Source: Candidatus Daviesbacteria bacterium (lineage in GTDB: Bacteria > Patescibacteriota > Microgenomatia > Daviesbacterales > UBA10151). From it: 64,000 bases of DNA. Position 1 is the first letter of the stretch. The number at the start of each line of letters is the position of its first letter. The DNA lies in NCBI GenBank assembly GCA_021731695.1, contig JAKFWZ010000080.1, positions 34,021 through 98,020 of the forward strand, in the 5' to 3' direction. Shown here piece by piece: positions 6,281 to 42,682 of the stretch. The position numbers were made by a program, and so were the translations under genes. Under the pieces are notes generated by a model. That model saw nothing but the letters and a program-made list of their open reading frames with translations. It was not told the origin of the DNA and made no database searches.

Positions 6281-6452
6281 GCGAGCTTAGAAACAAAGAC
6301 CGTAAAGATTTTGCGAAGGAGCTATCAGGGGAAAAGCGGACTCTGACGATTAGTCAGATGTCCGAAGGGGCAACCTCCCCGATTAGCGACTGAGAAAAAT
6401 TAGGCCGACTTTCCAGCGAGCAGAGTTTTGGTACTTTTGCGGTCAAAAGTAC
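6281..6452 (+). repeat. structured ~170-230 bp repeat, copy A
   Basis: homologous to 9988, 10201, 27355, 42476; ends gtacttttg-cggt-caaaagtac. Confidence 0.85.
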
Positions 6453-6493
6453 AAAGAAAGAATTTTGCCATCAAAAGTGGCTAAAAAATATAA

Positions 6494-6521
6494 CTGGATC
6501 CCAGATCAAGTCTGGGATGAC
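6494..6521. repeat. CGTC-family half element overlapping the purN stop
   Basis: ctggatcccagatcaagtctgggatgac. Confidence 0.8.
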
Positions 6522-7186
6522 AAAGTTATTGCCTCTGCTTTCACTTCATCCAATATCCCAAACTCTTCTTCTCTGATAACTCTCTCCGTTCTTTGAATCG
6601 GCACAAGCTCCCCAGATCTCTCAACCCCAGCCCAAAACTCTGCATTCACATTCCGCTCTATTTCTTTTGCTCTTTCTTGCAAACTTTCTGGTGTGTCATC
6701 TTTTAAAATATCAAATGGTTTGTATATGACTAAATCTCCTTTGTCAAACTCTGGCGAAACTAAATGAATACATATTTCACTATTGAATTCACGGTTTACT
6801 CTTTTAGAAAAATTGAGCACTGCAACATGAACCGCTAGACCTTTCATCCCTTTGCCCCCAAAGTCTGGATGACCGGGATCCAGAGGAGCAGAATGACTAT
6901 TCGTCATTTTGCCTTGATATTTATTCACAACATTTAAAGGAGTCAACAATTCCCAGCCATTATGAGAAATAAAGTCAACCTTATATTTATTAAAGATTGT
7001 AAGTAGCTCCTCACCAAATGCTTCAGATTCCTTACCCTGCCGCAGAACAATTTCGACCGGTACTCCTGCATTTTTTGCTCTTTGAATTATTCCTGCCTGA
7101 GGATTATTCGTTACAACAACCGCCGCATATTTAAACAGAACTTCTGCAGTTGTTCCCTGACCTGATGCTAAAATTGCTAATTTCAT
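6506..7186 (-). CDS. purN: phosphoribosylglycinamide formyltransferase family protein
   Basis: KLAILASGQGT, NSHSA, FGGKGM.G..VH, HLV...D.G. Confidence 0.8.
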   Translation of the reverse strand: MKLAILASGQGTTAEVLFKYAAVVVTNNPQAGIIQRAKNAGVPVEIVLRQGKESEAFGEELLTIFNKYKVDFISHNGWELLTPLNVVNKYQGKMTNSHSAPLDPGHPDFGGKGMKGLAVHVAVLNFSKRVNREFNSEICIHLVSPEFDKGDLVIYKPFDILKDDTPESLQERAKEIERNVNAEFWAGVERSGELVPIQRTERVIREEEFGILDEVKAEAITLSSQT

Positions 7187-7190
7187 ATGA

Positions 7191-7271
7191 CGTCATTCCC
7201 GCGGAGGCGGGAATCCAATAAATAATACTTGGTCGGAATAATCAAGATTGCGACGCTTCGCTCGCAATGAC
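7191..7271. repeat. CGTC-family element with ATTCCC-N8-GGGAAT arm
   Basis: cgtcattcccgcggaggcgggaatcca...gattgcgacgcttcgctcgcaatgac. Confidence 0.85.
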
Positions 7272-7300
7272 ATGCTTTAGCAATAAAACAATTTAGCAAT

Positions 7301-8224
7301 TTAACCATTTTTTGACGCCTCCAGTATATTTTCCATCAAAGAATAAATAGTCATTGGTCCGACTCCGCCGAATTTAGGGGTATACATTTTAGCTTTTTCA
7401 TAAGTACTGGGGTCAAAATCCCCTAGGCCTACATCTATTAATATTGCACCCTCTTTTATCATTTCGGAATTAACCAGACTCTGAACTCCGGTGCAGGAAA
7501 TAACCACATCTGCTTCCTGCAAATCATCAAAATTGCAGTCAGGATTTCTTTTATCGAGGCGCAGGATTTTATGGGCATTTTTCATACTTAATTGCTCAAC
7601 TAAAGGTTTTCCCACTTCGCCTTCTGAACCGACAACCCCAAAAACTGTTTCTTTATACCAATTTTCGTCATCGCGAAGCGAGATCGCGGAGGCGTCATCG
7701 CGAAGCGAGATCGCGGAGGCGTCATCGCGAGGTGCTTTCTCCGAAGCAATCTCAGAGCTTACGGGGATTGCTTCTTCACTTCGTGATATCGCAATGACTT
7801 CTTCCAGAATCTTCATAACACCCAAAACAGTCGCTGAGACAAATGGGCTGTCTTCTTTCATTCCGTCAATATCTTTTTTCGAATCAATTAAATTAATCAA
7901 ATCCCATTTTGTTTTATCTTTCAAAAAGTCTCTGCTCAGAGGAAGTTGAATCATTATCCCCTTAACCTCGTCGGTTTCGTTTAAACTCCGAATCTTTTTA
8001 GCAACATTTTCAAAGGAAGTATTAACAGAAAATTTCATAGGCAAAAAGTCGATGTAAAATTCATCGGCTTTTTTCTGCTTCATTTGGGTATATAAAAGAG
8101 AATTGGGATCACTGCCGATTAAAATGCTCACTACAAGAGGCCGTTCCTTTAAGGCACCTAATTTAGTTTTTAATTTGTCACCCAGCCTATCAGCTAAAGC
8201 TTTTCCGTCAATAATTTGAGACAT
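7301..8224 (-). CDS. folD: methylenetetrahydrofolate dehydrogenase/cyclohydrolase with in-frame repeat insert
   Basis: IIDGK, GIMIQLPL, KDIDG, VGKP, TPKFGGVGPMT. Confidence 0.93.
   Translation of the reverse strand: MSQIIDGKALADRLGDKLKTKLGALKERPLVVSILIGSDPNSLLYTQMKQKKADEFYIDFLPMKFSVNTSFENVAKKIRSLNETDEVKGIMIQLPLSRDFLKDKTKWDLINLIDSKKDIDGMKEDSPFVSATVLGVMKILEEVIAISRSEEAIPVSSEIASEKAPRDDASAISLRDDASAISLRDDENWYKETVFGVVGSEGEVGKPLVEQLSMKNAHKILRLDKRNPDCNFDDLQEADVVISCTGVQSLVNSEMIKEGAILIDVGLGDFDPSTYEKAKMYTPKFGGVGPMTIYSLMENILEASKNG
7666..7798. repeat. CGTC/RPE-like element with two tandem 27-bp units, in frame in folD
   Basis: cgtcatcgcgaagcgagatcgcggagg x2 then core element; encodes VIAISRSEEAIPVSSEIASEKAPRD(DASAISLRD)x2. 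Confidence 0.92.
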
Positions 8225-8278
8225 TACTATTAGTATATCTTATTGACACAGGAAAATTAAGCCTTATAATATTATATT

Positions 8279-8551
8279 ATGTCAAAAGAAAGCCCTGAGG
8301 GGAATAAAATCGTTAAGAGAATGGTTTCAAGCGGTCTTGCGATTTTCTTATTAACTCTTGCAACCTATACAGTGGATTCCGAAGTGAATTACAGGGAGAA
8401 TCCTAATGCAGGCTTTGCTAAAGGTGACAGATTAACAGGTCACCCCCAGTCTTATTTATTCGGATTATATGGAGGTTTGGGACTTGCAACTCTTGGTGTT
8501 GCAGCAGGAATTGCTGAATCAAGAAGAAGAATTGTTAGGGCTGCCGGTTAG
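8279..8551 (+). CDS. small hypothetical membrane protein
   Basis: two hydrophobic segments; TTGACA..TATAAT directly upstream. Confidence 0.65.
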   Translation: MSKESPEGNKIVKRMVSSGLAIFLLTLATYTVDSEVNYRENPNAGFAKGDRLTGHPQSYLFGLYGGLGLATLGVAAGIAESRRRIVRAAG

Positions 8552-9873
8552 TCTATCCCGGGAACCGGGAACTTCTCTGTAAATTTCGCAATTTCCTTTT
8601 TAATTCTCAAAAGTTTTTTATTTCCGGCAATTTCCTTTTTAAAATTCCTAATATATTCAGCTCTTTGCTCTTTTTCTTTTGGAGTATCATGTCCTCTAAT
8701 CTCTTCCAAAGCCTCTTTAATCCAGGCTGCAATTTGCACCATTTCTTTTTCTTTCATTCCTCTTGTAGTCAGCGCCGGAGTACCGAGCCTTATTCCTGAA
8801 GGATAAAAAGGTGAAACCGGCTCGTTTGGAATGCTGTTTTTATTAACAGTAATTCCTGCAGTCTCAAGCGCGTACTGCCCCTGATAACCCATTCCGTAGC
8901 CATAATCTGTAAGACTCAAAAGTACAAGGTGAGTTTCGGAAATCGTTCCTAATTCTTTTGCCAGAACCGCAGCATTCTTTGCAATTTGTTCACCGTATTT
9001 CTTAAACGATGGCTTTAGCGCTTCCTCCAAACAAACTGCAATCGCAGCTGTTGTATGGTTATGAGGACCACCCTGCGCGCCCGGAATTAACGCCCTTTCG
9101 AGTTTGGTTTTAAGTTCAGGATCTTTTTTCATTCCGCGATCCGTAACCATAATCATCGCGCCTCTTGGACCTCTTAGCGTTTTATGCGTCGTAGTCATAA
9201 TAATGTCAACATATGGAACAGGTGATTCGTGTGCGCCGGCAATAATTAAACCGGTTATATGCGAACAATCTGCAACTAAAACTGCTCCGACTTTATCAGC
9301 AATTTTTCTGAATTTTTTATAATCAAGCTTAAAAGGGTATGCAGTTGTTCCGGCCCAAATTAACTTTGGCTTATGTTTAATCGCTAATTTTTCAAGTGCA
9401 TCAAAATCAATCTTCCAGTCCTTTCCAACCTCATAGTTCACGGCCTTATAAAAAATGCTTGAAAAACTTAAGTTCGCACCATGGGTTAAGTGGCCTCCAG
9501 ATGCAAGCGAAAGCCCCATAACCACATCTTTTGGTTCGCAAACTGCCATAGTGATGATTAAATTAGCCGGAGAACCTGAATATGGCTGAACAATTGCCGC
9601 GGGAACACTAAATAACTTCTTTGCTAAATCAATCGCATAATTTTCAATTTCATCAATAACCTCATTTCCGCCGTAATATCTTCTTCCCGGGAATCCTTCA
9701 GAATATTTATTAGTTAGAATTGAGCCTAAAGCCTGTAAGACTTCCGCTGAAACATAATTTTCAGAAGGTATCATTTCCAAGCCTTCTTTCTGACGGATTT
9801 CTTCTTTTTTGATAAGCGAATAGATCTTTGGGGAATTTTTCTTTAAAGCCGAATAGTTTATCGGGTTAGCCAT
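8548..9873 (-). CDS. glyA: serine hydroxymethyltransferase
   Basis: SENY, NKYSEG.PGRRYYGG, GGHLTHG, TTTHKTLRGPRG. Confidence 0.98.
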   Translation of the reverse strand: MANPINYSALKKNSPKIYSLIKKEEIRQKEGLEMIPSENYVSAEVLQALGSILTNKYSEGFPGRRYYGGNEVIDEIENYAIDLAKKLFSVPAAIVQPYSGSPANLIITMAVCEPKDVVMGLSLASGGHLTHGANLSFSSIFYKAVNYEVGKDWKIDFDALEKLAIKHKPKLIWAGTTAYPFKLDYKKFRKIADKVGAVLVADCSHITGLIIAGAHESPVPYVDIIMTTTHKTLRGPRGAMIMVTDRGMKKDPELKTKLERALIPGAQGGPHNHTTAAIAVCLEEALKPSFKKYGEQIAKNAAVLAKELGTISETHLVLLSLTDYGYGMGYQGQYALETAGITVNKNSIPNEPVSPFYPSGIRLGTPALTTRGMKEKEMVQIAAWIKEALEEIRGHDTPKEKEQRAEYIRNFKKEIAGNKKLLRIKKEIAKFTEKFPVPGID

Positions 9874-9987
9874 TATGACTAGTGTAATTTACATTGAAGT
9901 TGATAAAGTGTCAATATGCGAGATAAGAGATACGTAAAACGAGATACGCTAACTCAAAGATGAATAGAATTTCCAAATAATTTTCCT

Positions 9988-10159
9988 TCCACTTTTGACG
10001 CAAAAGTGGAGCAAAACATACTCGCTGGAAAGTCGACCTAATTTTATTCAGTCGCTAATCGGGGAACCTTACCCCTTCGGCTTTTTTGCTAATCACAAAA
10101 AACCGAAATCCCCTGATAGCTCCTTCATAAAATCTTCACGGTCTTTGTTTCTAAGCTCG
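9988..10159 (-). repeat. structured repeat, copy B
   Basis: reverse complement of the copy A/D layout. Confidence 0.85.
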
Positions 10160-10200
10160 TCTTTAAAAGGCTTTGATTTATTTGAACACAAAAATAAATT

Positions 10201-10429
10201 GCGAGCATGAACGCAGCACCGTTGCTTTGCGAAGCAAAGGGCGTATTAGAATTCTTGAGTGAGCTGTCAGGGAGTGTCGGCTTCAGTTTACTGAAGACCG
10301 AAGTGGGCTCTGCACGAAGTGCGAGCGGGAGTCTAAATGACTCCCCGGAATGTCCCGACAAGTGAACGAAAGAATTTAGGCGACCGTTCCTGTCTCGCAG
10401 AGTTTTGCTTCTTTTGCGGTCAAAAGAAG
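10201..10429 (+). repeat. structured repeat, copy C
   Basis: longer variant ending cttcttttg-cggt-caaaagaag. Confidence 0.8.
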
Positions 10430-10466
10430 AAAGAAAGAATTTTGTGATCAAAGTAACAAGTAAGAA

Positions 10467-12122
10467 TTAACTATTAAAAATTTCTGAAGCTATTTTTATA
10501 ATTTCATCATCAGCTGCAACTTCCACATTCGCCACTTCCTCAATCCCAACCAATCTTTTGCCCAACCTTGTTGAAACTTTCACAGGCTTTCCTAAGACTT
10601 CAGCTAAAATTGACTCAAGTAAATTTCTTGATTTAGGCGCCTCCAGAATCCTTTGATGAAATGAATAGGGAACTTCGAGAATAACATTCGAACCATCACA
10701 ATTTACAACTTTTGTTTGTTTTAAAAGAGCCTCAAGCGAATAATTATAAGGCTTAATTGTTTCCAATATATAGGTCCATTTATCACTGATTACAATTACA
10801 TCGTCAGTCGACTGCATATCATCAACTGAAGGAATTGGCTCGGATTTGGACGATGGAGGATTGATGATAGAAAATGGGTTTTTGGGAATAGAAGGCTGAG
10901 AATAGACTTCTTTTTCTATTCTTCCAACTTCTACCTTCAAAACACTATCTTCCATCCTACTATATTCGACCTTCGGTTGTTCCTTTGATATGCTTTTCAC
11001 AACCGCAACTTCCAGAGGTAAAACTGCAAGAGTTGTGTACTTAAGTTGTTCTAAAACAGCCTGGAAATTTTCAATGTATGAAACAATTTGTCCGATCTCA
11101 GATTTATCCGCAAAACCCTTAACTTCTTCCCACTTTGCAGTTCCAAGTTCAGATTTAATTGGTTCAACAACTCCATTTTTAGTAAGCATCACAGACCTTA
11201 AAGTCTTCAAAACCAGGTTCGTGAATTCCTTTATATTCGCACCCTTTTCGCTCAAGCTATTAATCAATACTAAGCATTCAGTAGATTTTTTTTGCTGAAT
11301 TAAATTAAGTAAGTTCATAATCTCAGAAAAATCATTTGCTTTAAGCAATGCGCGAACTTCTTCCGGAGTTTTAACGCCTGATGAAGCTATCTGATCAAGA
11401 TTTTTAACAGCATCCCTGAAACTGCCTTCACTTCTTTCGGATATTAAGCTTAAGATTTCATCATTCAATTCCAATTTTTCTTTTTCTGCAATATCTTTAA
11501 GCACTGATTTAATTTGATCACCGGAAGCTAAATTGAAATCAAATCTTTGCACACGGGATAAAATTGTCTGAGGGATTTTTCGATCCTCAGTTGTGGCTAA
11601 AATAAACAAAACGTGTGCAGGCGGTTCTTCTAAAGTTTTCAGAAGCGCATTGAATGCTTCAGGAGTAAGCATATGAACTTCATCGATAATATAAACTTTC
11701 ATCCTCGCTGAGCTCGGAGAAAGTTTGATCTTTTCGCGCAAGTCACGGATATCATCAATTCCCCGGTTTGAAGCGGCATCAATTTCGATCAAGTCCATGT
11801 TAGAACCGTCGGTTATTGAGATGCAGGCTGAGCATTTATTGCAGGGAATCTTTAAGTCGCTAGAATCTAGAGTCGAGAGTCTAGGGGTTTCCTTTTTTTC
11901 ACTAGATTCTAGACTCTGGCGACTAGACTCCTGCGCTTCACAATTTACAAGCTTTGCCAGAATCCGGGCTGTTGAAGTTTTTCCTGATCCTCTTGGGCCG
12001 ACAAATAAGTATGCATGTCCTAATTTTCCCAGGCTAAATGCATTTAAAAGAGTTTTTTTAACATGATCCTGCCCGATAAGTTGTTCAAAATTTTGAGGTC
12101 GGTACTTGCGATAAAAAACCAT
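10467..12122 (-). CDS. dnaX: DNA polymerase III subunit gamma/tau with two in-frame repeat inserts
   Basis: YRKYRPQ, GPRGSGKTS, EIDAASNRG, IIDEVHML; start moved to ATG at 12122 because the extension is repeat sequence. Confidence 0.97.
   Translation of the reverse strand: MVFYRKYRPQNFEQLIGQDHVKKTLLNAFSLGKLGHAYLFVGPRGSGKTSTARILAKLVNCEAQESSRQSLESSEKKETPRLSTLDSSDLKIPCNKCSACISITDGSNMDLIEIDAASNRGIDDIRDLREKIKLSPSSARMKVYIIDEVHMLTPEAFNALLKTLEEPPAHVLFILATTEDRKIPQTILSRVQRFDFNLASGDQIKSVLKDIAEKEKLELNDEILSLISERSEGSFRDAVKNLDQIASSGVKTPEEVRALLKANDFSEIMNLLNLIQQKKSTECLVLINSLSEKGANIKEFTNLVLKTLRSVMLTKNGVVEPIKSELGTAKWEEVKGFADKSEIGQIVSYIENFQAVLEQLKYTTLAVLPLEVAVVKSISKEQPKVEYSRMEDSVLKVEVGRIEKEVYSQPSIPKNPFSIINPPSSKSEPIPSVDDMQSTDDVIVISDKWTYILETIKPYNYSLEALLKQTKVVNCDGSNVILEVPYSFHQRILEAPKSRNLLESILAEVLGKPVKVSTRLGKRLVGIEEVANVEVAADDEIIKIASEIFNS
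10849..10974. repeat. GATAGAA/TTCTATC-type inverted array, in frame in dnaX
   Basis: homologous to the topA insert at 31508-31634. Confidence 0.75.
11855..11930. repeat. AGAGTCT/AGACTCT inverted heptamer array in the dnaX zinc module
   Basis: agtcgctagaatctagagtc...ctagattctagactctggcgact. Confidence 0.8.
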
Positions 12123-12130
12123 AAGTTGGA

Positions 12131-12227
12131 AATAAAACCAATTCCCAATATAACAAATAAAACCAATTCCCAATAATCGTTTTCATTGGGCATTTGGCAT
12201 TGGTTTATTGGATTTATTGGTTTATTA
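12131..12227. repeat. AATAAACC/GGTTTATT inverted-array element
   Basis: ccaattcccaat...attgggcatttggcattgg core. Confidence 0.85.
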
Positions 12228-12238
12228 AGTTAAAGAGA

Positions 12239-12655
12239 TTAGTCATGATGGATGCCTAGGAGATGACGGGTTCCGTGTTCAACCAAAAACCTTAATTCCT
12301 CTTCAATTGAAACTCCTTCGATCGCTGCATCTTTGATGATTTGAGGATATGAAATCAAAATATCTCCAAGCCTTAAAACTTTATCCGGCGCTTTTACGAA
12401 TCCTACTTTTGGAATATGTTGAAGGCTTGATGTTGTTGAAGGATCTTCGAGCGGAAAAGATAAAATATTTGTGGTTGCATCCTGACCGCGGAATTTTTTA
12501 TTGATCTCATGCATTTTGCGGTCGCCAACAACTGCGACACCTATTTCTAGATTTCCATGAACATGATGCTGTTTTAAAATCTCTAAAACTGTTGCCTGAA
12601 TTCCTAATTTATTAACCGGATACTTTGGATCTGAATTAACGACGATATTAATCAT
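12239..12655 (-). CDS. ybeY: rRNA maturation RNase YbeY
   Basis: N..FRG.D..T.ILSF, LGDI.IS, HG..HLLG.HH. Confidence 0.9.
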   Translation of the reverse strand: MINIVVNSDPKYPVNKLGIQATVLEILKQHHVHGNLEIGVAVVGDRKMHEINKKFRGQDATTNILSFPLEDPSTTSSLQHIPKVGFVKAPDKVLRLGDILISYPQIIKDAAIEGVSIEEELRFLVEHGTRHLLGIHHD

Positions 12656-12664
12656 ATATAAAAG

Positions 12665-12744
12665 CGTCATTGCGAGGAGTGAAACGACGTGGCAATCTTG
12701 ATTAAATCAGGATTCCTACGCGCATTTCATGCGCTCTGAATGAC
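12665..12744. repeat. CGTC-family element (hybrid arms)
   Basis: cgtcattgcgagg..ggcaatc / ggattcctacgcgc..gcgctctgaatgac. Confidence 0.85.
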
Positions 12745-12750
12745 AAAACA

Positions 12751-13194
12751 CTAACTCTGTAACTTCCCCCTTACCATTGAACTAACCCTTGCGCCTTCAA
12801 CACGTTGACCGGCCTTCTCCATTACTAAACCTATTACCTTACCCATATCTGCCAAAGACGCAGCCCCTGTCTCAGTTATAGACTCCTCAACAATTTTAGT
12901 CAACTCCTCATCTGAGATCTGTTCTGGCAAGTAAGTTTCCAAGATCTTAAGTTCAGCCTCTTCTTTCGAAGCGAGTTCAGGCCTGTTACCCTTTGTAAAG
13001 CTTTCAATTGACTCTTTCCGTTTTTTAGCTTCTTTTTGAATAGCAGAAATTACATCTTCATCAGACAAATTTTCTGTTTGTTTAGCAACCTTCGCGTAAG
13101 TGAGTTCGGATATCAAAAGTCGCAAGGTCGCAACTTTAACTTCATCTTTTGCAAGTTGAGCCTGTTTTAAATCTTCGCGTAATTTATTTTCCAT
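12751..13194 (-). CDS. GatB/YqeY domain protein
   Basis: K.RKESIE.F..GNR.ELA.KE..E..IL..YLP.Q, DMGKV. Confidence 0.92.
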   Translation of the reverse strand: MENKLREDLKQAQLAKDEVKVATLRLLISELTYAKVAKQTENLSDEDVISAIQKEAKKRKESIESFTKGNRPELASKEEAELKILETYLPEQISDEELTKIVEESITETGAASLADMGKVIGLVMEKAGQRVEGARVSSMVRGKLQS

Positions 13195-13202
13195 TTTATA
13201 AG

Positions 13203-13308
13203 CGTCATTGCGAGGAACGACCTGCCTACCGTCAGGCAGGAGTGACGTGGCAATCTTGATTAAAGCAAAATCAGGATTCCTACGCGCACTCTGTGCGCTC
13301 TGAATGAC
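13203..13308. repeat. CGTC-family element containing a nested 20-bp CCTGCC..GGCAGG palindrome
   Basis: insert cctgcctaccgtcaggcagg at 13221-13240. Confidence 0.85.
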
Positions 13309-13313
13309 AAACC

Positions 13314-13517
13314 TTAAGCATTAGCTAAACGTTTTGCTCTCCTGATTTTTCGGTCTCTTTCAGCAAGCTTTTCTTTTCTTTTCTCTGAGTTCTTTTTATG
13401 GAACATCATATCGCGGTATTCCTGAACAACTTTATCCATAACAACCCTTTTTTGGAATTTACGGATTACAGCGTCAGAATTATCATTTGGTCCGGCTTTT
13501 ACTATAATTGATGACAT
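13314..13517 (-). CDS. rpsU: 30S ribosomal protein S21
   Basis: basic 67-aa protein, IRKFQKRV, next to yqeY. Confidence 0.85.
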   Translation of the reverse strand: MSSIIVKAGPNDNSDAVIRKFQKRVVMDKVVQEYRDMMFHKKNSEKRKEKLAERDRKIRRAKRLANA

Positions 13518-13523
13518 TTGGTT

Positions 13524-14200: not shown

Positions 14201-14237
14201 GGTGGATATTATCTAATATTTAATACTATAAGTCAAA

Positions 14238-27314: not shown

Positions 27315-27354
27315 AATAACCAACATACAAGTTTTCCAAGTAAATCACAATATT

Positions 27355-27524
27355 GCGAGCTTGAAACAAAGCGCGTATAGAATTTTTGAGCGAGTTATCA
27401 GGGGATTTCGGTTTTTTGCGATTAGCAAAAAAGCCGAAGGGGTAAGGTTCCCCGATTAGCGAACGAAAAAATTTAGCGCGACTTTCCGCGAGTAGAGTTT
27501 TGCTACTTTTGCGGTCAAAAGTAG
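27355..27524 (+). repeat. structured repeat, copy D
   Basis: ends ctacttttg-cggt-caaaagtag. Confidence 0.85.
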
Positions 27525-27540
27525 GAAGAAAAATAAACAA

Positions 27541-27579
27541 AATCAAGATTGCCACGCCACTTCGTGGTCTCGCAATGAC
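27541..27579. repeat. CGTC-family right half element
   Basis: aagattgccacgccacttcgtggtctcgcaatgac. Confidence 0.8.
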
Positions 27580-29713: not shown

Positions 29714-31921
29714 TTATGCGTTGGCAATAGCCGGATCTTTAGGTTTGGTCCACGAAGCATATTTGCAATTAGGATAATTTTTACATCCGAAAAATGTCTT
29801 GCCTCTTTTAGTTTTTCTTACTACAACGTCCCCTCCGTCATCCGGACATTTTACATCAAGTATTTGTTCAATTCGCTCGGTGTGTTTGCAATCGGGGAAT
29901 CCTGAACAGGCAAGGAATTTACCAAATTTTCCAGTTCTAACAATTAATTGCTTTCCGCATTTTGGACAATTTTTATCAACAGTTTCAACTTCAAGCACTA
30001 CCCTTTCTGCAGTTTCTTCAATAGTTCCGAGCTTTGCTGAAAGAGGCTTAAAATAAGTTGCTACAGTTTCTTTCCATTCCTTTTCTCCTCTTGAAATATC
30101 ATCCAATGAATCCTCCATTTGAGCCGTAAATTGATAATCAAATAGTTCAGGAAAATGCTTCATTAAGAAATCATTAACGGTCATTCCGAGAGAAGTCGGA
30201 TTAAATTTACGCTCAGTTTTTTCAACATAATACCGATCCTGAATTGTTGAAAGAATCGGAGCATAAGTCGATGGGCGACCAATTCCCAGTTCTTCAAGTT
30301 TTTTAACAAGTGAGGCTTCGGTAAATCTGGGAGGAGGTTGAGTGAAATGCTGAAGTGGCTTAATTTCTTTTTGTTCTAAAGCTTCACCTTCTGTTAAATT
30401 AGGAATCTTTTGATCTTCAGCTTTATTTTTTTCTTCGCCTTCAACCTTTTCCTCTTCCTCTTCTTCTTTATCAATTCCGTAAACTTTAAGCCATCCGGGA
30501 AATTTTAATTGTGAACCAGTTGCTCTTAAATTGTATTCGTCATCGCGAAGCGAGATCGCGGAGGCGTCATTGCGAGCCGCAGGCGAAGCAATCTCAGAGC
30601 TTACTGGGATTGCTTCTCCACTTCGTGGTATCGCAATGACGTCAACTGAAGTTTGATCAAATACCGCATCATTAACTTGCGAAGCAACTGTTCTCTTGAA
30701 TATGAGGTCATAAAGTCTTTTGTGATCACGGGTAAAATTATCTCCTTTTAGCTTTTCAGAATTTAAATTCACATCTGTAGGCCTGATTGCTTCGTGAGCT
30801 TCCTGTGCATTTTTTGATTTAGCTTTGTAGAAGCGCGCTTGAGCTGGCAAATATTCTGCCCCTAAATTTGCAGAAATATAATCTCGTGCCATTCCCAAAG
30901 CTAAAGTTGAAAGATTGACGGAATCAGTTCTCATGTAGGTTATATATCCCTGCTCATAAAGGTTTTGAGCAATCATCATAGTTTTTTTCGCAGACATACC
31001 TAGTTTATTGCCTGAAGTTTGCTGCAAGGTTGAAGTGGTAAATGGCGGAGCAGGAGACCGTTTAACTTCTTTTTTAGTAATGGCTCTAACTGAATAAGCA
31101 CTTTGCTTAAGGTTTCCAACGATTTTTTCAGCCTCATCACTATTGTTTATAACTGCCTTTTCCCTGTTGATTTCCGTAAGTTGGGCTGTAAAAACCTTCG
31201 ACTCTTTCGACCCCTCCGACTCCTTCGAATCTAGCAATACTTCTATACTCCAATATTCGTTAGCTTTAAACGCTTCGATCTCGCGCTCACGCTCTACGAT
31301 TAAACGCAAAGCCACAGATTGTACACGACCCGCAGACAGACCTCTTTTTATTTTTTTCCATAATACCGGAGAAAGTTTATAACCGACTAAACGATCCAAA
31401 ACTCTGCGTGCTTGTTGAGCATCGACCAGCTGCAGATTAATTTCGCGCGGATGCTCAAAAGCTTCCATAATTGCGTTCTTTGTAATTTCATGGAATTCAA
31501 CACGCCGAATGGACGGTAGATGACCGATGATAGAAGATGGTTTTTTGAGAGTAGAAGATTGAGAATTGATTTTCTTATCTACTTTCAATCCTCCATTTTC
31601 CGCCCCTACCTTCAATTTTCTATTTTCCATCGTCATAATCTGAGCTAAATGCCAGGCAATTGCTTCTCCTTCACGATCAGGGTCGGTGGCCAGATATAAA
31701 ACATCTGCACCCTCCATCATCTTTTTTAATTCATTAACTTTCTTCTTTTTATCTCGCGGGATTATATATTTAGGCTCAAATGTTTCCTCGTCAACTCCGA
31801 TTTCAGCTTTTGGCAGATCACGGATATGACCCATCGAAGCTTCGATTTTATAATTCTTACCTAAAAATTTTGAAAGTGTTCTCGCTTTTGTAGGCGATTC
31901 GACGATTACAACGTTTTGCAT
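29714..31921 (-). CDS. topA: DNA topoisomerase I with three repeat-derived segments
   Basis: VESPTKA, DPDREGEAI, SAGRVQS, ITYMRTDS, C-terminal zinc ribbons. Confidence 0.98.
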   Translation of the reverse strand: MQNVVIVESPTKARTLSKFLGKNYKIEASMGHIRDLPKAEIGVDEETFEPKYIIPRDKKKKVNELKKMMEGADVLYLATDPDREGEAIAWHLAQIMTMENRKLKVGAENGGLKVDKKINSQSSTLKKPSSIIGHLPSIRRVEFHEITKNAIMEAFEHPREINLQLVDAQQARRVLDRLVGYKLSPVLWKKIKRGLSAGRVQSVALRLIVEREREIEAFKANEYWSIEVLLDSKESEGSKESKVFTAQLTEINREKAVINNSDEAEKIVGNLKQSAYSVRAITKKEVKRSPAPPFTTSTLQQTSGNKLGMSAKKTMMIAQNLYEQGYITYMRTDSVNLSTLALGMARDYISANLGAEYLPAQARFYKAKSKNAQEAHEAIRPTDVNLNSEKLKGDNFTRDHKRLYDLIFKRTVASQVNDAVFDQTSVDVIAIPRSGEAIPVSSEIASPAARNDASAISLRDDEYNLRATGSQLKFPGWLKVYGIDKEEEEEEKVEGEEKNKAEDQKIPNLTEGEALEQKEIKPLQHFTQPPPRFTEASLVKKLEELGIGRPSTYAPILSTIQDRYYVEKTERKFNPTSLGMTVNDFLMKHFPELFDYQFTAQMEDSLDDISRGEKEWKETVATYFKPLSAKLGTIEETAERVVLEVETVDKNCPKCGKQLIVRTGKFGKFLACSGFPDCKHTERIEQILDVKCPDDGGDVVVRKTKRGKTFFGCKNYPNCKYASWTKPKDPAIANA
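30538..30641. repeat. CGTC/RPE-like element plus 27-bp unit, in frame in topA
   Basis: encodes [34 protein letters not shown]. Confidence 0.92.
31508..31634. repeat. GATAGAA/TTCTATC-type inverted array, in frame in topA
   Basis: homologous to dnaX 10849-10974. Confidence 0.78.
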
Positions 31922-36306: not shown

Positions 36307-36313
36307 ATGCTGA

Positions 36314-36915: not shown

Positions 36916-37027
36916 AAATTGATTATATCACCCCGAAAAAGCCCGTAGCATCATTAGATATTCAACAGAATGAAGAGCAAGAAGATAAGCTAAGTTATTT
37001 TTTGGGAGGTCAGTTCCCATATATTAT

Positions 37028-37513
37028 TTATACTCTCATTGCAGGCAATGAGGACATTGGTCTTCTGAGATCTTCTCTGAACCTAGCAAGCTTAGTATGT
37101 AGCGAGTATAAACTATCACTAATAGGCTCTGCTAAGTTCATTAAACCAACTAAATACTGCACATCATCTAGCACAATCGCTCTCCCTTGTTGCGAGGGTA
37201 TAGTTACAGAACTATGTAAATCATCAGGATTAATATGAGCAACTACTAGAGGGTATTTAGCTGGTTGAAGATACTGAGAAATCCATAAATCATAATTTGA
37301 TTCAGGCCTATCAATATTATTGGTAGCAATAGACATAACAACTCCATCATCTCTTGAAGAAAAAGTTGTAAAGGCACGCAAGCCTCTCTCTACACCACTC
37401 TGATTAAATCTTGCCATAGCTTCAGTTGCTGCAGATCTGATTCTAAGGGAATCTGCTGTACCTAATAATACATTTGTAGCTCTGGACTGTGCTAATCTTT
37501 CACTTAATAACAT
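37028..37513 (-). CDS. hypothetical protein (orphan)
   Basis: 161-aa ORF; TTGACT..TATAAT upstream. Confidence 0.6.
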   Translation of the reverse strand: MLLSERLAQSRATNVLLGTADSLRIRSAATEAMARFNQSGVERGLRAFTTFSSRDDGVVMSIATNNIDRPESNYDLWISQYLQPAKYPLVVAHINPDDLHSSVTIPSQQGRAIVLDDVQYLVGLMNLAEPISDSLYSLHTKLARFREDLRRPMSSLPAMRV

Positions 37514-37554
37514 CTTAAATGAATTATATTTTATGAAATCTCATAGTCAATATA

Positions 37555-39399
37555 CTATTCTCCTAAAGTCCTTGCCGATTCAGTTGCCACAAAACCAATA
37601 TCCTTAAGTAAGTTAGACTTATCCTCAGAGAAATACCATCTAAAAATTTCTTTAACTACAGGTGAGGCGTTTGTTGAACCCTCCCCTCCTCCTTCAAGTA
37701 ATACTGTTGCAGTGATCTTAGGATTATCAGCCGGCGCGTAGGCCGTATACCATGCATGCGTTTTATTTGGTTCCCCATATTCCGCAGTTCCTGTTTTTCC
37801 TGCAGTTTTAATTGGGAAGGTGAAGAACGGCCAGGCGGTTCCGCCGTCTTTCGGCACTTCTTCTAAACCAACCTTAATTAAATTAATAAATTGAGGATCT
37901 GCTCCCTGATTCAGTGGATCATATTTAAATTCCTTAACAGCTCCTTTTCTAGAGTCTTCAATCGCGAGACCTAAATGAGGGGGGAATTGTTTTCCGTTTG
38001 AAGCTATATATGAAATTAAATTGGAAACCTGAAGTGGAGTTGCAAGTAAAAATCCCTGACCAATTGACATATGCAGCGTGTCTCCCGGATACCAGACTTC
38101 GCCTATTTCTTTATCTTTCCAATCGGGAGTAGGAACCAAACCTGCTTCCTCTCCTAAAATATCAATTCCTATTTTTTTACCAAAACCTAATTTAGTAGCC
38201 TCATTAGCAATTGCTTTTTCTCCGACTAAAGCGCCGAGCTGATAAAAATAAATATCATTTGATCGTTTTAAAGCCCGAACCAAATCAACCGGTTCAGGTT
38301 CTTTCCTTCCATACTGAGTAAAATACCAATTCGCAAAAGAATACGGACCTAAATTCATCACACCTGTGTCTTCAAATTTTGTTTCAGGAGTAATTTTTCC
38401 GGATTCTAAACCAGCAAGCCCTGAGGCAATTTTAAAAGTTGAAGCCGGTGGATAAACACCTGCAATTGCTCTGTTTAAAAGCGGAGAATTCAGTGCAGTT
38501 AATGCTTCTGCTAAATTATCAGGATTATACGAAGGTATAGAAACCATAGCCAAAACTTCACCATTATTTGGGTCAGTTACAACCGCAGCCCCGCAGCAAC
38601 TGCCTGATTTTTGAAGAGTCTCCAGTAGTTTTTGATATGTCACTTCCTGTAGCGCAATATCAATTGTCAGTCTTAAATTTTGCCCTGGAACAGCCTCCTT
38701 TTTACGCAATGTTCGTAATTTCCTACCCGAAGCATCTACTTCAATAATTTCTCCGCCATCAATGCCTCTTAACGTTTTTTCGTAGGCTTCCTCAACTCCA
38801 CCTCTGCCGATTTTATCTCCACCTTTGTAGTTTATATATTTTTCACTGGTAAGTTCCTCTTCCGTTATTTCCCCCATATATCCTAAAACATGACTGGATT
38901 TTTCTTTGTGTGGGTATGTTCTGAGCGAGTCTATTTCAAGATTTGCGAGTCTCGGATCATTATTTACTTCCATATTTATCGCTTCCTCCCTTGTTATATA
39001 CAAAGCTTTCGCAGATCCGCTGGCGTTTAGCATTCGAAATCCCGGAGCATTTGCTGCAACTATTTTTCCGTTTCGATCATAGATAACTCCACGGGGTGCA
39101 TGAATAACTTTAATCTGAATTCGATTTGAATCAGCCAATTCGAGGTTTTCTTTTCCGCGGGCAATTTGAAGATGAAATGCCCTTCCAAAAAGCAAAGCAA
39201 AACCCGTAATAAAAACCAAAACAAGAATTGTTTTTATCCACGGACTCATCTGATGAGTGACAATTTCTTCAGTATCAGAAAAGAACAAATTATCAGAGAT
39301 ATTAAAAGTGTTTAATTTTTTATTATGGAAATGACCCGAGGCACGGGCAGTTTTTTTTAGTTCATCATTAAATGCTTTGCCAAATTTAAGTTTAGCCAT
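37555..39399 (-). CDS. mrdA: penicillin-binding protein 2
   Basis: APRG.IYDRNG, STFK, S.D, KTGTA. Confidence 0.93.
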   Translation of the reverse strand: MAKLKFGKAFNDELKKTARASGHFHNKKLNTFNISDNLFFSDTEEIVTHQMSPWIKTILVLVFITGFALLFGRAFHLQIARGKENLELADSNRIQIKVIHAPRGVIYDRNGKIVAANAPGFRMLNASGSAKALYITREEAINMEVNNDPRLANLEIDSLRTYPHKEKSSHVLGYMGEITEEELTSEKYINYKGGDKIGRGGVEEAYEKTLRGIDGGEIIEVDASGRKLRTLRKKEAVPGQNLRLTIDIALQEVTYQKLLETLQKSGSCCGAAVVTDPNNGEVLAMVSIPSYNPDNLAEALTALNSPLLNRAIAGVYPPASTFKIASGLAGLESGKITPETKFEDTGVMNLGPYSFANWYFTQYGRKEPEPVDLVRALKRSNDIYFYQLGALVGEKAIANEATKLGFGKKIGIDILGEEAGLVPTPDWKDKEIGEVWYPGDTLHMSIGQGFLLATPLQVSNLISYIASNGKQFPPHLGLAIEDSRKGAVKEFKYDPLNQGADPQFINLIKVGLEEVPKDGGTAWPFFTFPIKTAGKTGTAEYGEPNKTHAWYTAYAPADNPKITATVLLEGGGEGSTNASPVVKEIFRWYFSEDKSNLLKDIGFVATESARTLGE

Positions 39400-39434
39400 T
39401 TTAAACGCAGTTTTTAAAAGAGGCGTTGCCTCAT

Positions 39435-39878
39435 CTAAATCTTAAGCTTAATATTTCTTTTAACAATAAATCTTCCCTCCCAGACTCTAATTAAATAAAA
39501 CGCCGGAATAATAAGTAGTGTTTCAATTAAAGCCGGAACGAATTCAAAATTTGTGTGCATAAAAATCATATTTAAAAATTCAAGGGAAAAAATAATAATT
39601 CCCGCCCAAAGGGTTACAGTAAAAGGCGTCAAAGATATCGGCAGCTTAGAAATCATATAGCAAATTTTAACAGTCAAAAGTAAAATCAGAGGCCAATAAC
39701 CCATATTATCCTGAGTCAAAAAAGACAAGATTAAACCACCAAAAAATGCCAGATAATAATTAGAACTATCCTGAATAAGTAAGCTCCTTGCGATAAGACA
39801 AATTAAAATAAGATTAACCGGCAAAAATGCACTTTGTAAAAAGGCAAAAAGTATTAGCACTAATAAAAATATCTTCAT
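39435..39878 (-). CDS. mreD: MreD-like membrane protein
   Basis: hydrophobic; lies between mreC and mrdA. Confidence 0.6.
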   Translation of the reverse strand: MKIFLLVLILFAFLQSAFLPVNLILICLIARSLLIQDSSNYYLAFFGGLILSFLTQDNMGYWPLILLLTVKICYMISKLPISLTPFTVTLWAGIIIFSLEFLNMIFMHTNFEFVPALIETLLIIPAFYLIRVWEGRFIVKRNIKLKI

Positions 39879-39883
39879 TATTT

Positions 39884-39989
39884 AATAAAACCAATAAACA
39901 AATAACCCAATAAAACCAATTCCCAATTTATTTTTCCTGCCTTTTATTTGGCATTGGTTTTATTTGCATATTGGCTTCATTGGTTTATT
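39884..39989. repeat. AATAAACC/GGTTTATT inverted-array element
   Basis: same arms as 12131 and 34624. Confidence 0.8.
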
Positions 39990-39995
39990 CCTTAT

Positions 39996-40787
39996 TTACT
40001 CACCCACAATAAACACTAAATCCAAGTCTCCTATATTAAAAACTGGCTTAACCTTTGCCTGCTTGAATGCCTCCTCGTCTTTTTCAATAATTTCTGTCAC
40101 CTGACCTAAAACTAAACCTCTCGGGATTTCAATTTCCTGACCTTCTGAATAAACTAAATTATTTACCTCAATCGGCTCTTCGTGCAAAATTTTATCGAGT
40201 AACATTTCAGAACCAAACTGTCCGACTAGTAGTCCCTTTGCTCTGCCTGCATCAGATTGAGAAAAGGCAGTTAGCCTGGAGTCGGGGTCTGATGCTAAAA
40301 CTACTTTTGATCTTTTTGGATCAACCTCGAACACTTTTCCAATATAGCTATCTTTAAAAACAACAGCCTGATTAACTTTTATTCCATCATCGCTGCCTTT
40401 ATCTATAAGAAGAAATCTTGAAAATCCAATCGGCCGTGCCGGAATTAAATTAAAAACCTCATCACTCAAAGCTTTGTCCTGATCCAAAAACGCTTGTGTT
40501 TCGGCAAGTTTTTTTCTTAAACTCGCATTTTCAGAAAGCACCAGCGCAAGCTGTTCGCTCAATGCTTTATTTTCCTGACTCGCTTTTCTGGCGTTAACAA
40601 TATATCCAAACTGACCGGAAACATTTAAATAGCTCCTAAAAAGACCATATTGAATCGGAACTGTGACATTTTGGACCAAAGATTTTGGCAGATTCAGGAA
40701 TTTAAAACTGTCTAAAAAAATCAACACAACTGCGATAAAAAGCAACAATCCATATACTTTTATATCTTCAAGGATTAGCTTCACCAT
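39996..40787 (-). CDS. mreC: rod shape-determining protein MreC
   Basis: coiled coil (ENASLR), IDKGS.DG, P.GL.LG.V; start moved to ATG 40787. Confidence 0.92.
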   Translation of the reverse strand: MVKLILEDIKVYGLLLFIAVVLIFLDSFKFLNLPKSLVQNVTVPIQYGLFRSYLNVSGQFGYIVNARKASQENKALSEQLALVLSENASLRKKLAETQAFLDQDKALSDEVFNLIPARPIGFSRFLLIDKGSDDGIKVNQAVVFKDSYIGKVFEVDPKRSKVVLASDPDSRLTAFSQSDAGRAKGLLVGQFGSEMLLDKILHEEPIEVNNLVYSEGQEIEIPRGLVLGQVTEIIEKDEEAFKQAKVKPVFNIGDLDLVFIVGE

Positions 40788-40833
40788 TAGGTTGTTAATG
40801 TAGCATAAATATGGTACTCTTTGACAGGACAAA

Positions 40834-41664
40834 ATGGCCGATTCATTCATAGAAAAGCTAAAACAAAAATGGAATGAAGACCGTTTTATTTGTATCGGCT
40901 TAGATTCAGATTTCTCCAAAATCCCTCAAAGTTTCAAAGATCAAAGTTCAGATTCAGAAGTTCCAATCGAAGGAGCCATTTATGAGTTCAATAAATCAAT
41001 CATTGATTCAACTCATGACCTAGTCTGCGCCTATAAAATCAACAGTGCATTTTATGAAGCAGATGCTCAAACCTGGGAAGCAATGCTAAATACCTTTTAT
41101 TACATCCAAAGAACATATCCTGAAATTCCGGTTATCTTAGATGCAAAACGCGGAGATATCGGAAATACGAATCAGGGTTACGTAAAAATGGCTTTTGAAA
41201 CTATAAAAGCTGATGCAATTACAATTCACCCATATTTAGGACAGGAAGCAAATCAGCCGTTTTTAGATCAAAAAGACAAAGGCATAATTGTTTTAGTTAG
41301 AACTTCGAATGAAGGCGCAGGAGAATTTCAGGACCTTCCAGTTAGTGGTCGCCCGCTTTATGAGATAGTTGCAGAAAATGTTGCAACGAAGTGGAATACA
41401 AACGGAAACTGCGCAGTTGTTGTTGGAGCAACTTATCCGGAAGAGTTAAAGAAAGTTAGGGAAATTGTCGGAGATATGCCTATTTTAGTGCCTGGAATTG
41501 GAGCCCAAGGCGGAGATTTAGAAGGAGTTTTAGCAAATGGACTTAATAAAGAAAAGCAGGGATTGATAATAAGTTCCTCAAGGGCAATAATCTACGCAGA
41601 TGATCCGAGAATGGCTGCGCAGGATTTGGACCAGAAAATTTCGTCATTCCACCGGACCAAGTGA
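40834..41664 (+). CDS. pyrF: orotidine-5'-phosphate decarboxylase
   Basis: CIGLD, ILDAKRGDIGNT, VVGAT, LVPGIGAQGG. Confidence 0.97.
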   Translation: MADSFIEKLKQKWNEDRFICIGLDSDFSKIPQSFKDQSSDSEVPIEGAIYEFNKSIIDSTHDLVCAYKINSAFYEADAQTWEAMLNTFYYIQRTYPEIPVILDAKRGDIGNTNQGYVKMAFETIKADAITIHPYLGQEANQPFLDQKDKGIIVLVRTSNEGAGEFQDLPVSGRPLYEIVAENVATKWNTNGNCAVVVGATYPEELKKVREIVGDMPILVPGIGAQGGDLEGVLANGLNKEKQGLIISSSRAIIYADDPRMAAQDLDQKISSFHRTK

Positions 41665-41773
41665 AACTTGGGAGGTCGCTTGCAAAAAATGTCTAAACGA
41701 CAATTTTTGACAAGGGGGCGAAGTCTGGAATCCAGGCAAATCACACTGGATCCCAAATCAAGTTTGGGATGAC
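41642..41773. repeat. CGTC-family element with nested ACCGGA..GACAAGGGG insert; supplies the pyrF stop
   Basis: cgtcattcc[accgg..ggaggtcgcttgcaaaa..ttttgacaagggg]..ggaatccagg..ctggatccc..gggatgac. Confidence 0.85.
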
Positions 41774-41783
41774 AGGAGAAAAT

Positions 41784-42434
41784 ATGAACACAGAAACATC
41801 TAAACAAGTTGCAAAAATATTACTTGAACTTAAAGCTATAACGCTTAAGCCAAACGAGCCTTTTAAATATGCTTCAGGAATTTTATCGCCTGTTTATACA
41901 GACTGCAGAGTGATTATTGCCTATCCTGAAAAAAGAAAAGAAATCAGGGATTTATATATAGAAGCTATTGAGGAATCAGGTGTTGAATTTGATATCGTCG
42001 CAGGAACTGCCACTGCCGGAATTCCTCATGCCGCCTGGATTGCAGATAAATTAGAGTTGCCGATGATTTATGTTCGGGGCAAAGCGAAAGATCACGGTAA
42101 AGGAAATACTGTCGAAGGAATAATCGAAGAAGGGCAATCAGCAGTAGTTATTGAGGATTTAGTTTCAACCGGAGAAAGTTCGATCAATAGTGTTAAAGCA
42201 ATCGAAGAAGCCGGCGGAAAAGTCTCGCACGTTTTTTCAATCATTCAATATGGTTTAGATAAAGGAAAAAATAATTTTAGCGAGAATAATATAGAACTTA
42301 TATCGCTGACAGATTTCAAAACAGTTGTCGAAGAAGCGCAAAAAATGGGTTATATAAATGAAGAGGAAATTGAAGTGGTTATGGATTGGATCGCGGATCC
42401 CGAAGGCTGGGGCAAAAAACACGGGTTTGAATAG
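41784..42434 (+). CDS. pyrE: orotate phosphoribosyltransferase
   Basis: ASGI.SP.Y.DCR, VR...KDHG, IEDLVSTGES. Confidence 0.97.
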   Translation: MNTETSKQVAKILLELKAITLKPNEPFKYASGILSPVYTDCRVIIAYPEKRKEIRDLYIEAIEESGVEFDIVAGTATAGIPHAAWIADKLELPMIYVRGKAKDHGKGNTVEGIIEEGQSAVVIEDLVSTGESSINSVKAIEEAGGKVSHVFSIIQYGLDKGKNNFSENNIELISLTDFKTVVEEAQKMGYINEEEIEVVMDWIADPEGWGKKHGFE

Positions 42435-42475
42435 ATTTAATGAAGCGAGCTATGAAAGCAGCTCTCTTTTAGTAG

Positions 42476-42682
42476 GCGAGTCCTGAACGCAGCGCCGTTT
42501 GAGTTTAAAGTTTTTGTCTAAGAACAAAGCGCGTTTAGAATTTTTGAGTGAGTTGTCAGGGGATTTCGGTTTTTTGTGATTAGCAAAAAAGCCGAAGGGG
42601 CAGCCTCCCCGACTAACGAACAAAAAAATTTAGCGCGACTTCTCGACAAAAAGAGTTTTGCTACTTTTGCGGTCAAAAGTAG
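42476..42682 (+). repeat. structured repeat, copy E
   Basis: close to copy D; 5' part shared with copy C. Confidence 0.85.

Follow-up and report, generated by a model that had tools for sequence, protein, structure and literature searches.

We describe an interspersed repeat without genes of its own, found in Microgenomatia (Patescibacteria) and approximately 180 bases long, whose copies, judging from pair covariation, keep one fold while their letters change, and whose orientation nearly always tracks replication, whatever the direction of the adjacent genes. Five copies, A to E, lie in the window (table 1), that is, the whole stretch of 64,000 nucleotides from a Candidatus Daviesbacteria contig (JAKFWZ010000080.1) that was analyzed. 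Because the fold is kept, because two triple helices are predicted within it, and because the copies nearly always face one way, this is likely a mobile single-stranded DNA (ssDNA) element. In the reading that we favor, and which we consider somewhat more probable than not, one strand of the element is predicted to fold as ssDNA into a long rod that has a purine-motif triplex cap and, behind it, a hairpin with a T·A-T triplex; the element would spread via an ssDNA intermediate at the replication fork by means of a nuclease supplied in trans.

Table 1. Copies of the element and adjoining features, in window coordinates
Feature	Position	Strand	Remark
Copy A, full element	6280..6462	+	between ybaB and purN; 3' hairpin 6431-6452
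3' remnant directly behind A	6464..6480	+	right half of another subfamily's 3' hairpin
CGTC/SRM half-arm beside A	6495..6521	-	neighbor, outside the element
Copy B	9981..10160	-	leading-strand half of a head-to-head pair, between glyA and dnaX
Copy C	10200..10437	+	with three additional hairpin inserts; variant tip triplex, GGGA / mirror TGGG / TCCC
3' remnant behind C	10441..10457	+	
Copy D, full element, reference copy	27354..27532	+	between tmk and pyrG
D, predicted purine-motif triplex	27399..27456	+	from covariation only
D, purine-motif triplex, G-tract 1	27401-27404	+	
D, purine-motif triplex, inner hairpin	27407-27438	+	
D, purine-motif triplex, G-tract 2, then loop	27439-27442	+	
D, purine-motif triplex, C-tract	27450-27453	+	
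D, predicted T·A-T triplex clamp with A-rich tail	27495..27532	+	from covariation only
D, T·A-T clamp, T-tract	27498-27501	+	
D, T·A-T clamp, hairpin with T4/A4 core	27503-27524	+	
CGTC/SRM half-arm beside D	27546..27579	-	neighbor
Two 5' remnants ahead of E	42445..42498	+	first ~15-22 nt of other subfamilies
Copy E	42510..42689	+	inside the pyrE-pyrC operon
CGTC/SRM half-arm beside E	42705..42739	-	neighbor

The original prediction had listed five copies. All five are real and span 178–237 nt, but the start it placed at 42476 belongs to a 5' remnant that immediately precedes copy E and comes from a different subfamily. The covarying variants of the 3' and inner hairpins are as it gave them, with both sides changed at 27 of 63 predicted pairs in the five copies; B and C, seen as back to back, lie head to head across a 40-nt spacer; and the lone CGTC half-arm noticed after A, D, and E is a reverse CGTC/SRM half-arm 21–43 nt downstream. 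This half-arm was rejected as a part of the element, since it adjoins 12 of 30 copies in the source genome (G000) and 1 of 152 in relatives.

G000 contains 30 copies, 28 of them full and 2 chimeric, and all lie between genes; 18 are single and the rest form six doublets, oriented head to head. Of 80 family genomes sampled, 36 carry the element, in 1–29 copies per genome; it was not found in the 44 others searched, one of which is a single-contig genome. Internally deleted and chimeric copies exist, and none of the partial copies inspected encloses a gene. As no two of the 28 full copies in G000 are more than 94% alike, there is no sign of recent movement. A first strict pattern had no matches in the genome contig collection and the family patterns had none in the viral contig collection; the tip-triplex pattern matched 14 viral loci, one with a weak partial model match, a scan of a single metagenome returned one locus, and copy D had no blastn match in plasmid and phage collections. 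Rods other than this one, in Patescibacteria at large as well as in phage contigs, appear to bear the same 3' triplex hairpin.

The copies fold better than expected by chance. For copy D, z is -3.70 when folded as RNA and -4.34 when folded as DNA, and copy C reaches z = -6.04 as DNA, 0 of 200 shuffles being as good in each case; the opposite strand of D folds too (z = -2.93). When the 28 copies are placed in a plain, unfitted MAFFT alignment, 91.3% of cells are paired versus 73.9% after shuffling, a control that ignores the relatedness of the copies, and both sides change in 28 of 40 pairs; in a model-aligned set of 112 copies this rises to 35 of 40. The earlier proposal that the structure is under selection, made from the five copies of the window, is supported, and the covariation holds in larger alignments.

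Two parts of the fold covary as triples and are predicted to form triple helices. For the rod tip we predict a G·G-C purine-motif triplex: the run length of the second G-tract equals that of the first in 66 of 78 distinct parsed cases (mean 34.9 and maximum 54 over 20,000 shuffles, relatedness ignored), and the second tract follows the first (rho 0.73) more closely than the C-tract (0.29). Tip variants are mirror images (GGGAA/GGGAA and GGGAG/GGGTG), which is what A·A-T and T·A-T triples need. The 3' hairpin is predicted to carry a T·A-T triplex clamp, in which the lengths of the 5' T-tract and the A-tract are equal in 113 of 152 distinct modules (mean 63.7 and maximum 81 over 5,000 shuffles that likewise ignore relatedness). 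The spacer between the T-tracts measures 5, 7, or 9 nt in 156 of 168, and three copies pair an AAGA tract with TTCT, that is, with a parallel third strand. This second triplex is equally compatible with RNA.

As to the folding molecule, we lean toward DNA rather than RNA because the predicted tip triplex is of the purine motif, because sheared GA pairs, like GNA mini-hairpins, occur on one strand, and because orientation follows replication and not transcription. In the 89 of 160 copies that were parsed there are 104 sheared tandem GA pairs and none of the opposite-strand type, the GCGAAGC mini-hairpin has a strand ratio of 22:0, and mismatches are purine-purine in 239 cases and pyrimidine-pyrimidine in 24. 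Among 105 apical loops there are 13 GNA triloops, 15 G-NNN-A loops, 1 GNRA, and 0 UNCG, with 62 of no special class. GCGAAGC is much more stable as DNA than as RNA according to the available part of PMC13037366. G·T is not clearly preferred over A·C in two counts (107 vs. 90 and 48 vs. 33). The original prediction of a mobile structured RNA or ssDNA element is upheld in its dispersed, mobile-like character, whereas the evidence leans away from its RNA option. Nothing suggests a ribozyme. A terminator role was dismissed, as neither of the terminal hairpins was predicted to be a terminator in a scan of 6100–10700 and the counts were no different from chance; a promoter role was likewise dismissed, -10-like sequences showing no upstream bias (80 vs. 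82 of 173).

Based on third-position GC skew, the folding strand is the lagging strand in 18 of 18 single copies of G000, one of them with a skew of just -0.003, and this includes all 6 copies that are sense to the downstream gene. Copy E is on the mRNA strand of its operon, yet on the lagging strand. Across the genome collection, the folding strand is lagging at 55 of 64 loci and leading at 9. Among relatives, 9 of 9 copies on one replichore of G017 are consistent, the element strand switches across dnaA in G062, and copies cluster 45–230 kb from dnaA in G045, G087, and G017. Leading-strand copies comprise 2 of 5 single copies in G045, directly after stop codons, and one copy retained in each of the six G000 doublets.

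Copies present in G000 are missing at orthologous slots of G001 and G005, and same-slot copies of G000 and G004 are 57–58% alike, compared with 76–91% for nearest paralogues. DNA contigs from sequencing runs, compared with 5400–13400, are fragmentary and yield no usable sign of an empty site; no RNA data set was listed among the runs, which has no bearing on expression. Of the mapped copies in relatives, 14 of 86 share a slot with G000, versus 1.8% per gene end; the same intergenic slots are reused by different subfamilies, and unrelated mini-elements also sit in them. Remnants accompany 8 (3') and 7 (5') of the 30 copies in G000, on which the patterns were tuned, and show no excess in relatives (4 vs. 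3 in the control, n = 151). We propose that the folded molecule is DNA and that the fold is the feature read by the mobilizing protein, a nuclease that would be supplied in trans and act through an ssDNA intermediate at the fork. Copy-out and paste-in would both occur on the nascent lagging strand (or the leading-strand template), and the use of the same strand type would preserve polarity. Incoming copies may often overwrite resident ones, which would yield remnants and mosaics.

Other explanations deserve consideration. We think it unlikely that the element is a structured RNA, retroposed or antisense, with its 3' end guarded by an ENE-like U·A-U triple helix and copied by a visiting reverse transcriptase. 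RNA would suit the long rod and the 3' pyrimidine-motif triple, the 3' tail is A-rich, the plus strand is the better RNA folder in 96 of 112 copies, and 12 of 18 single copies are antisense and follow closely on a stop codon. Even the polarity could be obtained, given that nascent-strand priming by group II introns can yield it. However, RNA strands are reportedly excluded from purine-motif triplexes, GNA triloops outnumber GNRA and UNCG loops, G·U pairs are scarce (48 of 1,290 pairs), and the copies have neither an upstream promoter bias, nor a target duplication, nor an Rfam match. Furthermore, reverse transcriptase occurs in 6 of 37 element-positive versus 16 of 44 element-negative genomes, and in 0 of 7 genomes with five or more copies. 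Template switching perfects inverted repeats, and correction of this kind in a neutral quasi-palindrome might mimic covariation; it cannot make mirror-repeat triples, though, and this very improbable idea is already largely refuted by the strand asymmetry of the mismatches that are retained.

The polarity could also arise if insertion took place in either direction and copies with the triplex strand as lagging-strand template stalled the fork and were purged. Triplexes can arrest polymerases. In addition, TM repeats are linked to local instability in the available part of PMC4666352. Against such purging, six doublet members survive in the "bad" orientation in G000, where neither the BoxC-like triplex motif (9:9) nor lone SRM hairpins (62:48) are biased, and we regard it as unlikely. 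A domesticated host signal acting on the leading-strand template, either a primase or restart site (ssi-like) or an origin-proximal fork-pausing signal, would fit the strictness of the polarity, the clustering near dnaA, and the slots common to several genera; mini-hairpins are moreover known in the G4 and ssiA priming sites (PMC13037366, available part). It sits poorly with the 44 genomes in which the element was not found, the variable copy number, the internally deleted and chimeric copies, and the unrelated mini-elements in the same slots, and we hold it to be improbable. There is a small chance that the element represents a widespread class of gene-less "DNA-fold" replicators, short ssDNA units with a tertiary structure, made up of sheared GA pairs, mini-hairpins, and two triple helices, that is conserved in the manner of ribozyme folds. 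They would be copied at the fork by host enzymes alone or would act as leading-strand priming sites.

The linked reverse transcriptase or HUH gene envisaged in the original prediction did not emerge from a partner search that covered Y1_Tnp, RVT_1, GIY-YIG, DUF559, and Y2_Tnp together with neighbor clustering. Y1_Tnp and RVT_1 are absent from G000, none of Y1, reverse transcriptase, or GIY-YIG tracks the element across 81 genomes, and the genes neighboring 68 loci include no recurring non-housekeeping family. For RAYT, PF01797 is absent from G000 and none lies beside any copy; no linked reverse transcriptase of a retron, group II intron, or DGR was found. A PF04986 profile search gave no match, its controls being equally silent.

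At gathering thresholds, Rfam returned only three tRNAs from the window, and E-value scans, whether of B/C and 20 family loci (best E 0.99) or of 20 distant loci, brought up no relevant family. Searches of the accessible literature likewise yielded no account of this repeat. The earlier remark that the element could not be assigned to a known family stands with regard to Rfam and must be qualified by its resemblance to BoxC/PIT triplex repeats and, in behavior, to REPIN and bcr1. The element behaves like BoxC, REPIN, and bcr1 repeats yet does not qualify as a member of any of them. The bcr1 repeats of the Bacillus cereus group have a replication-linked orientation and compensatory changes. They are described in the available parts of PMC6199540 and PMC3446304, on which the comparison rests, as ~155-nt structured intergenic repeats with mobile features, no known enzyme, and TTTAT target duplications, which are lacking here. 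The BoxC/PIT/TM_ECO repeats, as far as the available text describes them (PMC4666352, Holder et al. 2015), are intergenic, number ~20–30 copies, form a purine-motif G·G-C intrastrand triplex, include some inverted pairs of two types, cluster origin-ward, and have neither a linked mobile gene nor a demonstrated gene-expression function. The covarying mirror G-tracts give our element the same triplex potential. TM_ECO has 37 nt of highly conserved sequence and 8–9 triples, and that text reports no strand bias, its counts of 13 plus and 10 minus not being by replichore. In contrast, the present element measures ~180 nt and has a tip of 4–5 triples, ordered purine-purine-pyrimidine and linked by a hairpin. 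It also has a long covarying rod and, besides the tip triplex, one of the T·A-T type, and it shows replication polarity. The GGGNGAGGG-type 37-nt BoxC consensus with 8–9 triples is in no full copy, and a BoxC-like pattern occurs at 18 places in G000, one of them inside chimera C11.

REPINs and BIMEs with RAYT, which are GTAG-tagged palindromes of 20–40 nt, mostly in inverted doublets, are similarly non-autonomous, extragenic, hairpin-forming, and mosaic, occur as doublets, and presumably move as ssDNA (PMC3116915 and PMC3733652, available parts), whereas our element lacks a terminal GTAG in alignments, is single in 18 of 30 cases, forms head-to-head doublets, and has no RAYT in G000. SRM/NTS (CGTC) repeats with Ssn GIY-YIG nucleases are also directional ssDNA hairpins in the available part of PMC11893778, but the element is six times longer and without the CGTC motif; it flanks none of 15 GIY-YIG genes inspected, and G017, with 10 copies, has one weak GIY-YIG match and no exact GTCATTGCGAG. 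SRM/NTS repeats are present in G000, often adjoining the element. The HUH elements IS91 and IS200/IS605 share replication-linked orientation, IS91 leaning against fork movement and IS200 with it (PMC3971601, available part); the element has no transposase, and IS200/IS605 uses the lagging-strand template, the strand opposite to the one that folds here. A MITE of DDE transposons was rejected, as the two ends differ from each other without terminal inverted repeats, and the ends of 27 copies show no consistent target-site duplication. A TTGCG motif common to both ends was dropped as a recombination site because other subfamilies lack it.

The element bears on a standing question, the formation and relevance of intrastrand DNA triplexes in bacteria. 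According to the available part of PMC4666352, the TM motif of E. coli can fold in vitro but gave no in vivo footprint. That the tracts covary three ways in more than 150 natural copies is evidence from evolution for selection on such triples, and these copies supply exact compensatory mutants. The lagging-strand polarity links the element to the replication fork and departs from the IS200/IS605 rule. An enzyme that reads the fold, should there be one, would be a new ssDNA-structure-specific nuclease; without such an enzyme, the element would be spreading in a way not described so far.

All five predicted copies of the element are present in the window at about the positions originally given, between housekeeping genes (ybaB/purN, glyA/dnaX, tmk/pyrG and pyrE/pyrC). 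A profile built from these copies found 28 full copies and two chimeras in the 1.45-Mb genome containing the window (G000), every one between genes; a covariance model gave 29 matches there. Covariance-model matches were also present in 36 of 80 sampled family genomes (1–14 copies per genome), in 15 of 150 genomes at class level and in 7 of 150 at phylum level, six of the seven weakly. A pattern scan of a genome collection gave 68 loci; where titles are informative they name Ca. Daviesbacteria or Ca. Levybacteria, and many are generic; this set overlaps the family sample and hence is not independent, and identical copies were dropped wherever sets were pooled. The Rfam search returned no match to the element, and searches of open papers found no description of the family.

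The element begins 5' with a basal helix that alternates among copies between Watson-Crick and tandem-GA forms, followed by two short helices and a rod with sheared GA pairs. Next come a bulged A and a G-tract whose pairing partner is a C-tract, then an inner hairpin and a second G-tract. In the 3' part, a T-tract leads into a T/A-core hairpin, and the tail is rich in A. Additional hairpins with GNA loops occur at fixed insertion places, internally deleted copies retain only the basal stem and 3' hairpin, and in the chimeras, whose right junctions are identical, a BoxC-like insert replaces the upper rod. Predicted folding of tested copies beats all 200 shuffles, and the covariation first noticed in five copies extends to larger alignments. 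Two-sided changes occur at 28 of 40 pairs in a plain alignment of 28 copies, from which the structure was itself set by hand (slid controls 34–52%; paired cells 91.3% versus 73.9% shuffled), and at 35 of 40 in 112 model-aligned copies, an alignment that leans towards the model; the controls of both tests ignore relatedness of copies.

From covariation in these sequences we predict two triple helices. At the rod tip, the second G-tract mirrors the first: their runs are equally long in 66 of the 78 distinct cases, compared with at most 54 (mean 34.9) among shuffles, 29 of 180 sequences being unparsed. Where the first tract contains A, variants fit A·A-T and T·A-T triples; the predicted arrangement corresponds to the antiparallel purine motif of PMC4666352. 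At the 3' end we predict a parallel T·A-T clamp. Of 152 distinct modules, 113 have a free T-tract as long as the A-tract, against a mean of 63.7 and a maximum of 81 in shuffles. The T-tract spacer measures 5, 7 or 9 nt in 156 of 168, and in three copies with AAGA, probably related to each other, the third strand is TTCT. Other Patescibacteria and phage contigs have a 3' hairpin of the same kind on different rods. On phage or prophage contigs (L213, L215, L216, L218–L220, L234, L235), other rods with this T-tract and T/A hairpin at their end are present in several intergenic copies, with a weak Gut-1-like Rfam match near two of them. Another Microgenomatia family has a sister family of the element (L288, L289, L291, L302), in which the basal rod and 3' hairpin are retained but the tip is different and lacks G-tracts.

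Mismatches are far more often purine-purine than pyrimidine (239 versus 24), the 89 parsed rods contain 104 instances of tandem sheared GA, and the 105 apical loops include 13 GNA triloops, one GNRA and no UNCG loop, with 62 unclassified. GCGAAGC occurs 22 times on the strand predicted to fold and never on the other. Two features count against DNA: the 3' triplex is compatible with RNA as well, and G·T is not clearly preferred over A·C. Hairpins of the GCGAAGC type are much more stable as DNA (PMC13037366). We consider an RNA element unlikely and a folded molecule of DNA quite probable. The original prediction of a mobile structured RNA or ssDNA element is thereby narrowed towards ssDNA.

By third-position skew, the folding strand is the C-rich (lagging) strand in 18 of 18 single copies in G000, six of which run in the sense direction of the gene that follows; total skew gives 17 of 18. 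In the collection set, less three doublet loci and one without a model match, it is lagging in 55 of 64 loci, and in 14 of 17 sense cases. The count is 9 of 9 copies in genome G017, all on one side of dnaA, and in G062 the element strand switches across dnaA; exceptions are two of five singles in G045, both immediately behind a stop codon. An antisense-after-stop rule holds for 12 of 18 G000 singles, close to the leading-gene share of 0.71, and thus replication accounts for more of the orientation. Two other kinds of repeat in G000 are unbiased (lone SRM hairpins 62:48, BoxC-like motifs 9:9). Copies in near-complete genomes are concentrated 45–230 kb from dnaA, behind which there may be only one homologous region. 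Purging could also produce the polarity, and the element could instead be a host priming signal; both readings seem improbable to us, to almost the same degree, and a neutral palindrome is very improbable.

The element is absent from G001 and G005 at both slots examined, other inserts occupy the glyA-dnaX slot in G002 and G003, and G004 has copies at the ybaB/purN slot and the slot of copy C, with a deleted copy at tmk/pyrG. Same-slot copies are 57–58% identical, nearest paralogues 76–91%. Relatives share a slot with G000 in 14 of 86 mappable copies, versus 1.8% per gene end. In G000, 8 of 30 copies have a 3'-hairpin right half from another subfamily behind them and 7 of 30 have the first bases of another subfamily ahead of them, by search patterns tuned on these same data; no enrichment of remnants was seen beside copies in relatives. 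Replacement of resident copies by incoming ones, or gene conversion among copies, fits. The back-to-back placing of copies B and C is not unique, G000 having six head-to-head doublets (spacers 12–75 nt). Neither terminal inverted repeats nor target duplications were seen at the element ends. Identity between copies reaches at most 94%, which gives no sign of recent insertion.

Beside copy B lies a heptamer-repeat remnant of a four-helix-bundle cassette, and an intact-looking cassette occupies the same glyA-dnaX slot in G002 (L248), so the slot has been reused by unrelated mini-elements. A 135-nt element, with end hairpins resembling IS200/IS605-type ends, has two identical copies in the window and 15 full-length copies in G000 at 93–100%; it is far younger than the ~180-nt repeat, and despite its youth no Y1 transposase was found in G000.

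The check for a linked RT or HUH gene found none, Y1_Tnp and RVT_1 being absent from G000. Across 81 genomes, kin among them not independent, RT occurs in 6 of 37 element-positive versus 16 of 44 element-negative genomes, Y1 in 29 of 37 versus 41 of 44, and GIY-YIG in almost all of either kind. Of 15 small GIY-YIG genes inspected, none has the element at its flanks, and neighbours of the 68 loci include no recurring mobile gene family. Nor is the CGTC half-arm a regular companion, standing behind 12 of 30 copies in G000 and only 1 of 152 elsewhere. G000 has 15 four-helix-bundle genes, 14 small GIY-YIG genes, 4 Cas2-like small genes and ~330 matches to the CGTC/SRM motif. Both its DUF559 nuclease genes adjoin BoxC/TM-like triplex motifs, resembling the SRM hairpins that flank GIY-YIG genes; by analogy, DUF559 nuclease is a possible enzyme for BoxC-type repeats.

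Locations of chimeras and neighbouring features in G000 and the window
Feature	Location	Description
Chimera L034	G000 C8:29043-29264	element 5' arm and 3' hairpin around BoxC-like triplex doublet
Chimera L035	G000 C11:18827-19060	element 5' arm and 3' hairpin around BoxC-like triplex doublet
Cassette remnant	window 9915-9980	
135-nt element	window 4660-4794, 46761-46895	
CGTC and BoxC-like palindromes	window 7664-7798, 30536-30641, 42946-43099, 55639-55769	within coding sequences
DUF559 genes with BoxC/TM-like motifs	G000 C26:11794-12350, C9:18246	

The element behaves like BoxC/PIT/TM_ECO repeats, REPINs and bcr1, but failed the membership test for each. From the fold, polarity and slot reuse documented here, we lean towards a non-autonomous ssDNA element, for which we infer the DNA identity, enzyme and route: a nuclease supplied in trans would recognise the fold, and the element would move at the replication fork, using either the nascent lagging strand or the template of the leading strand.
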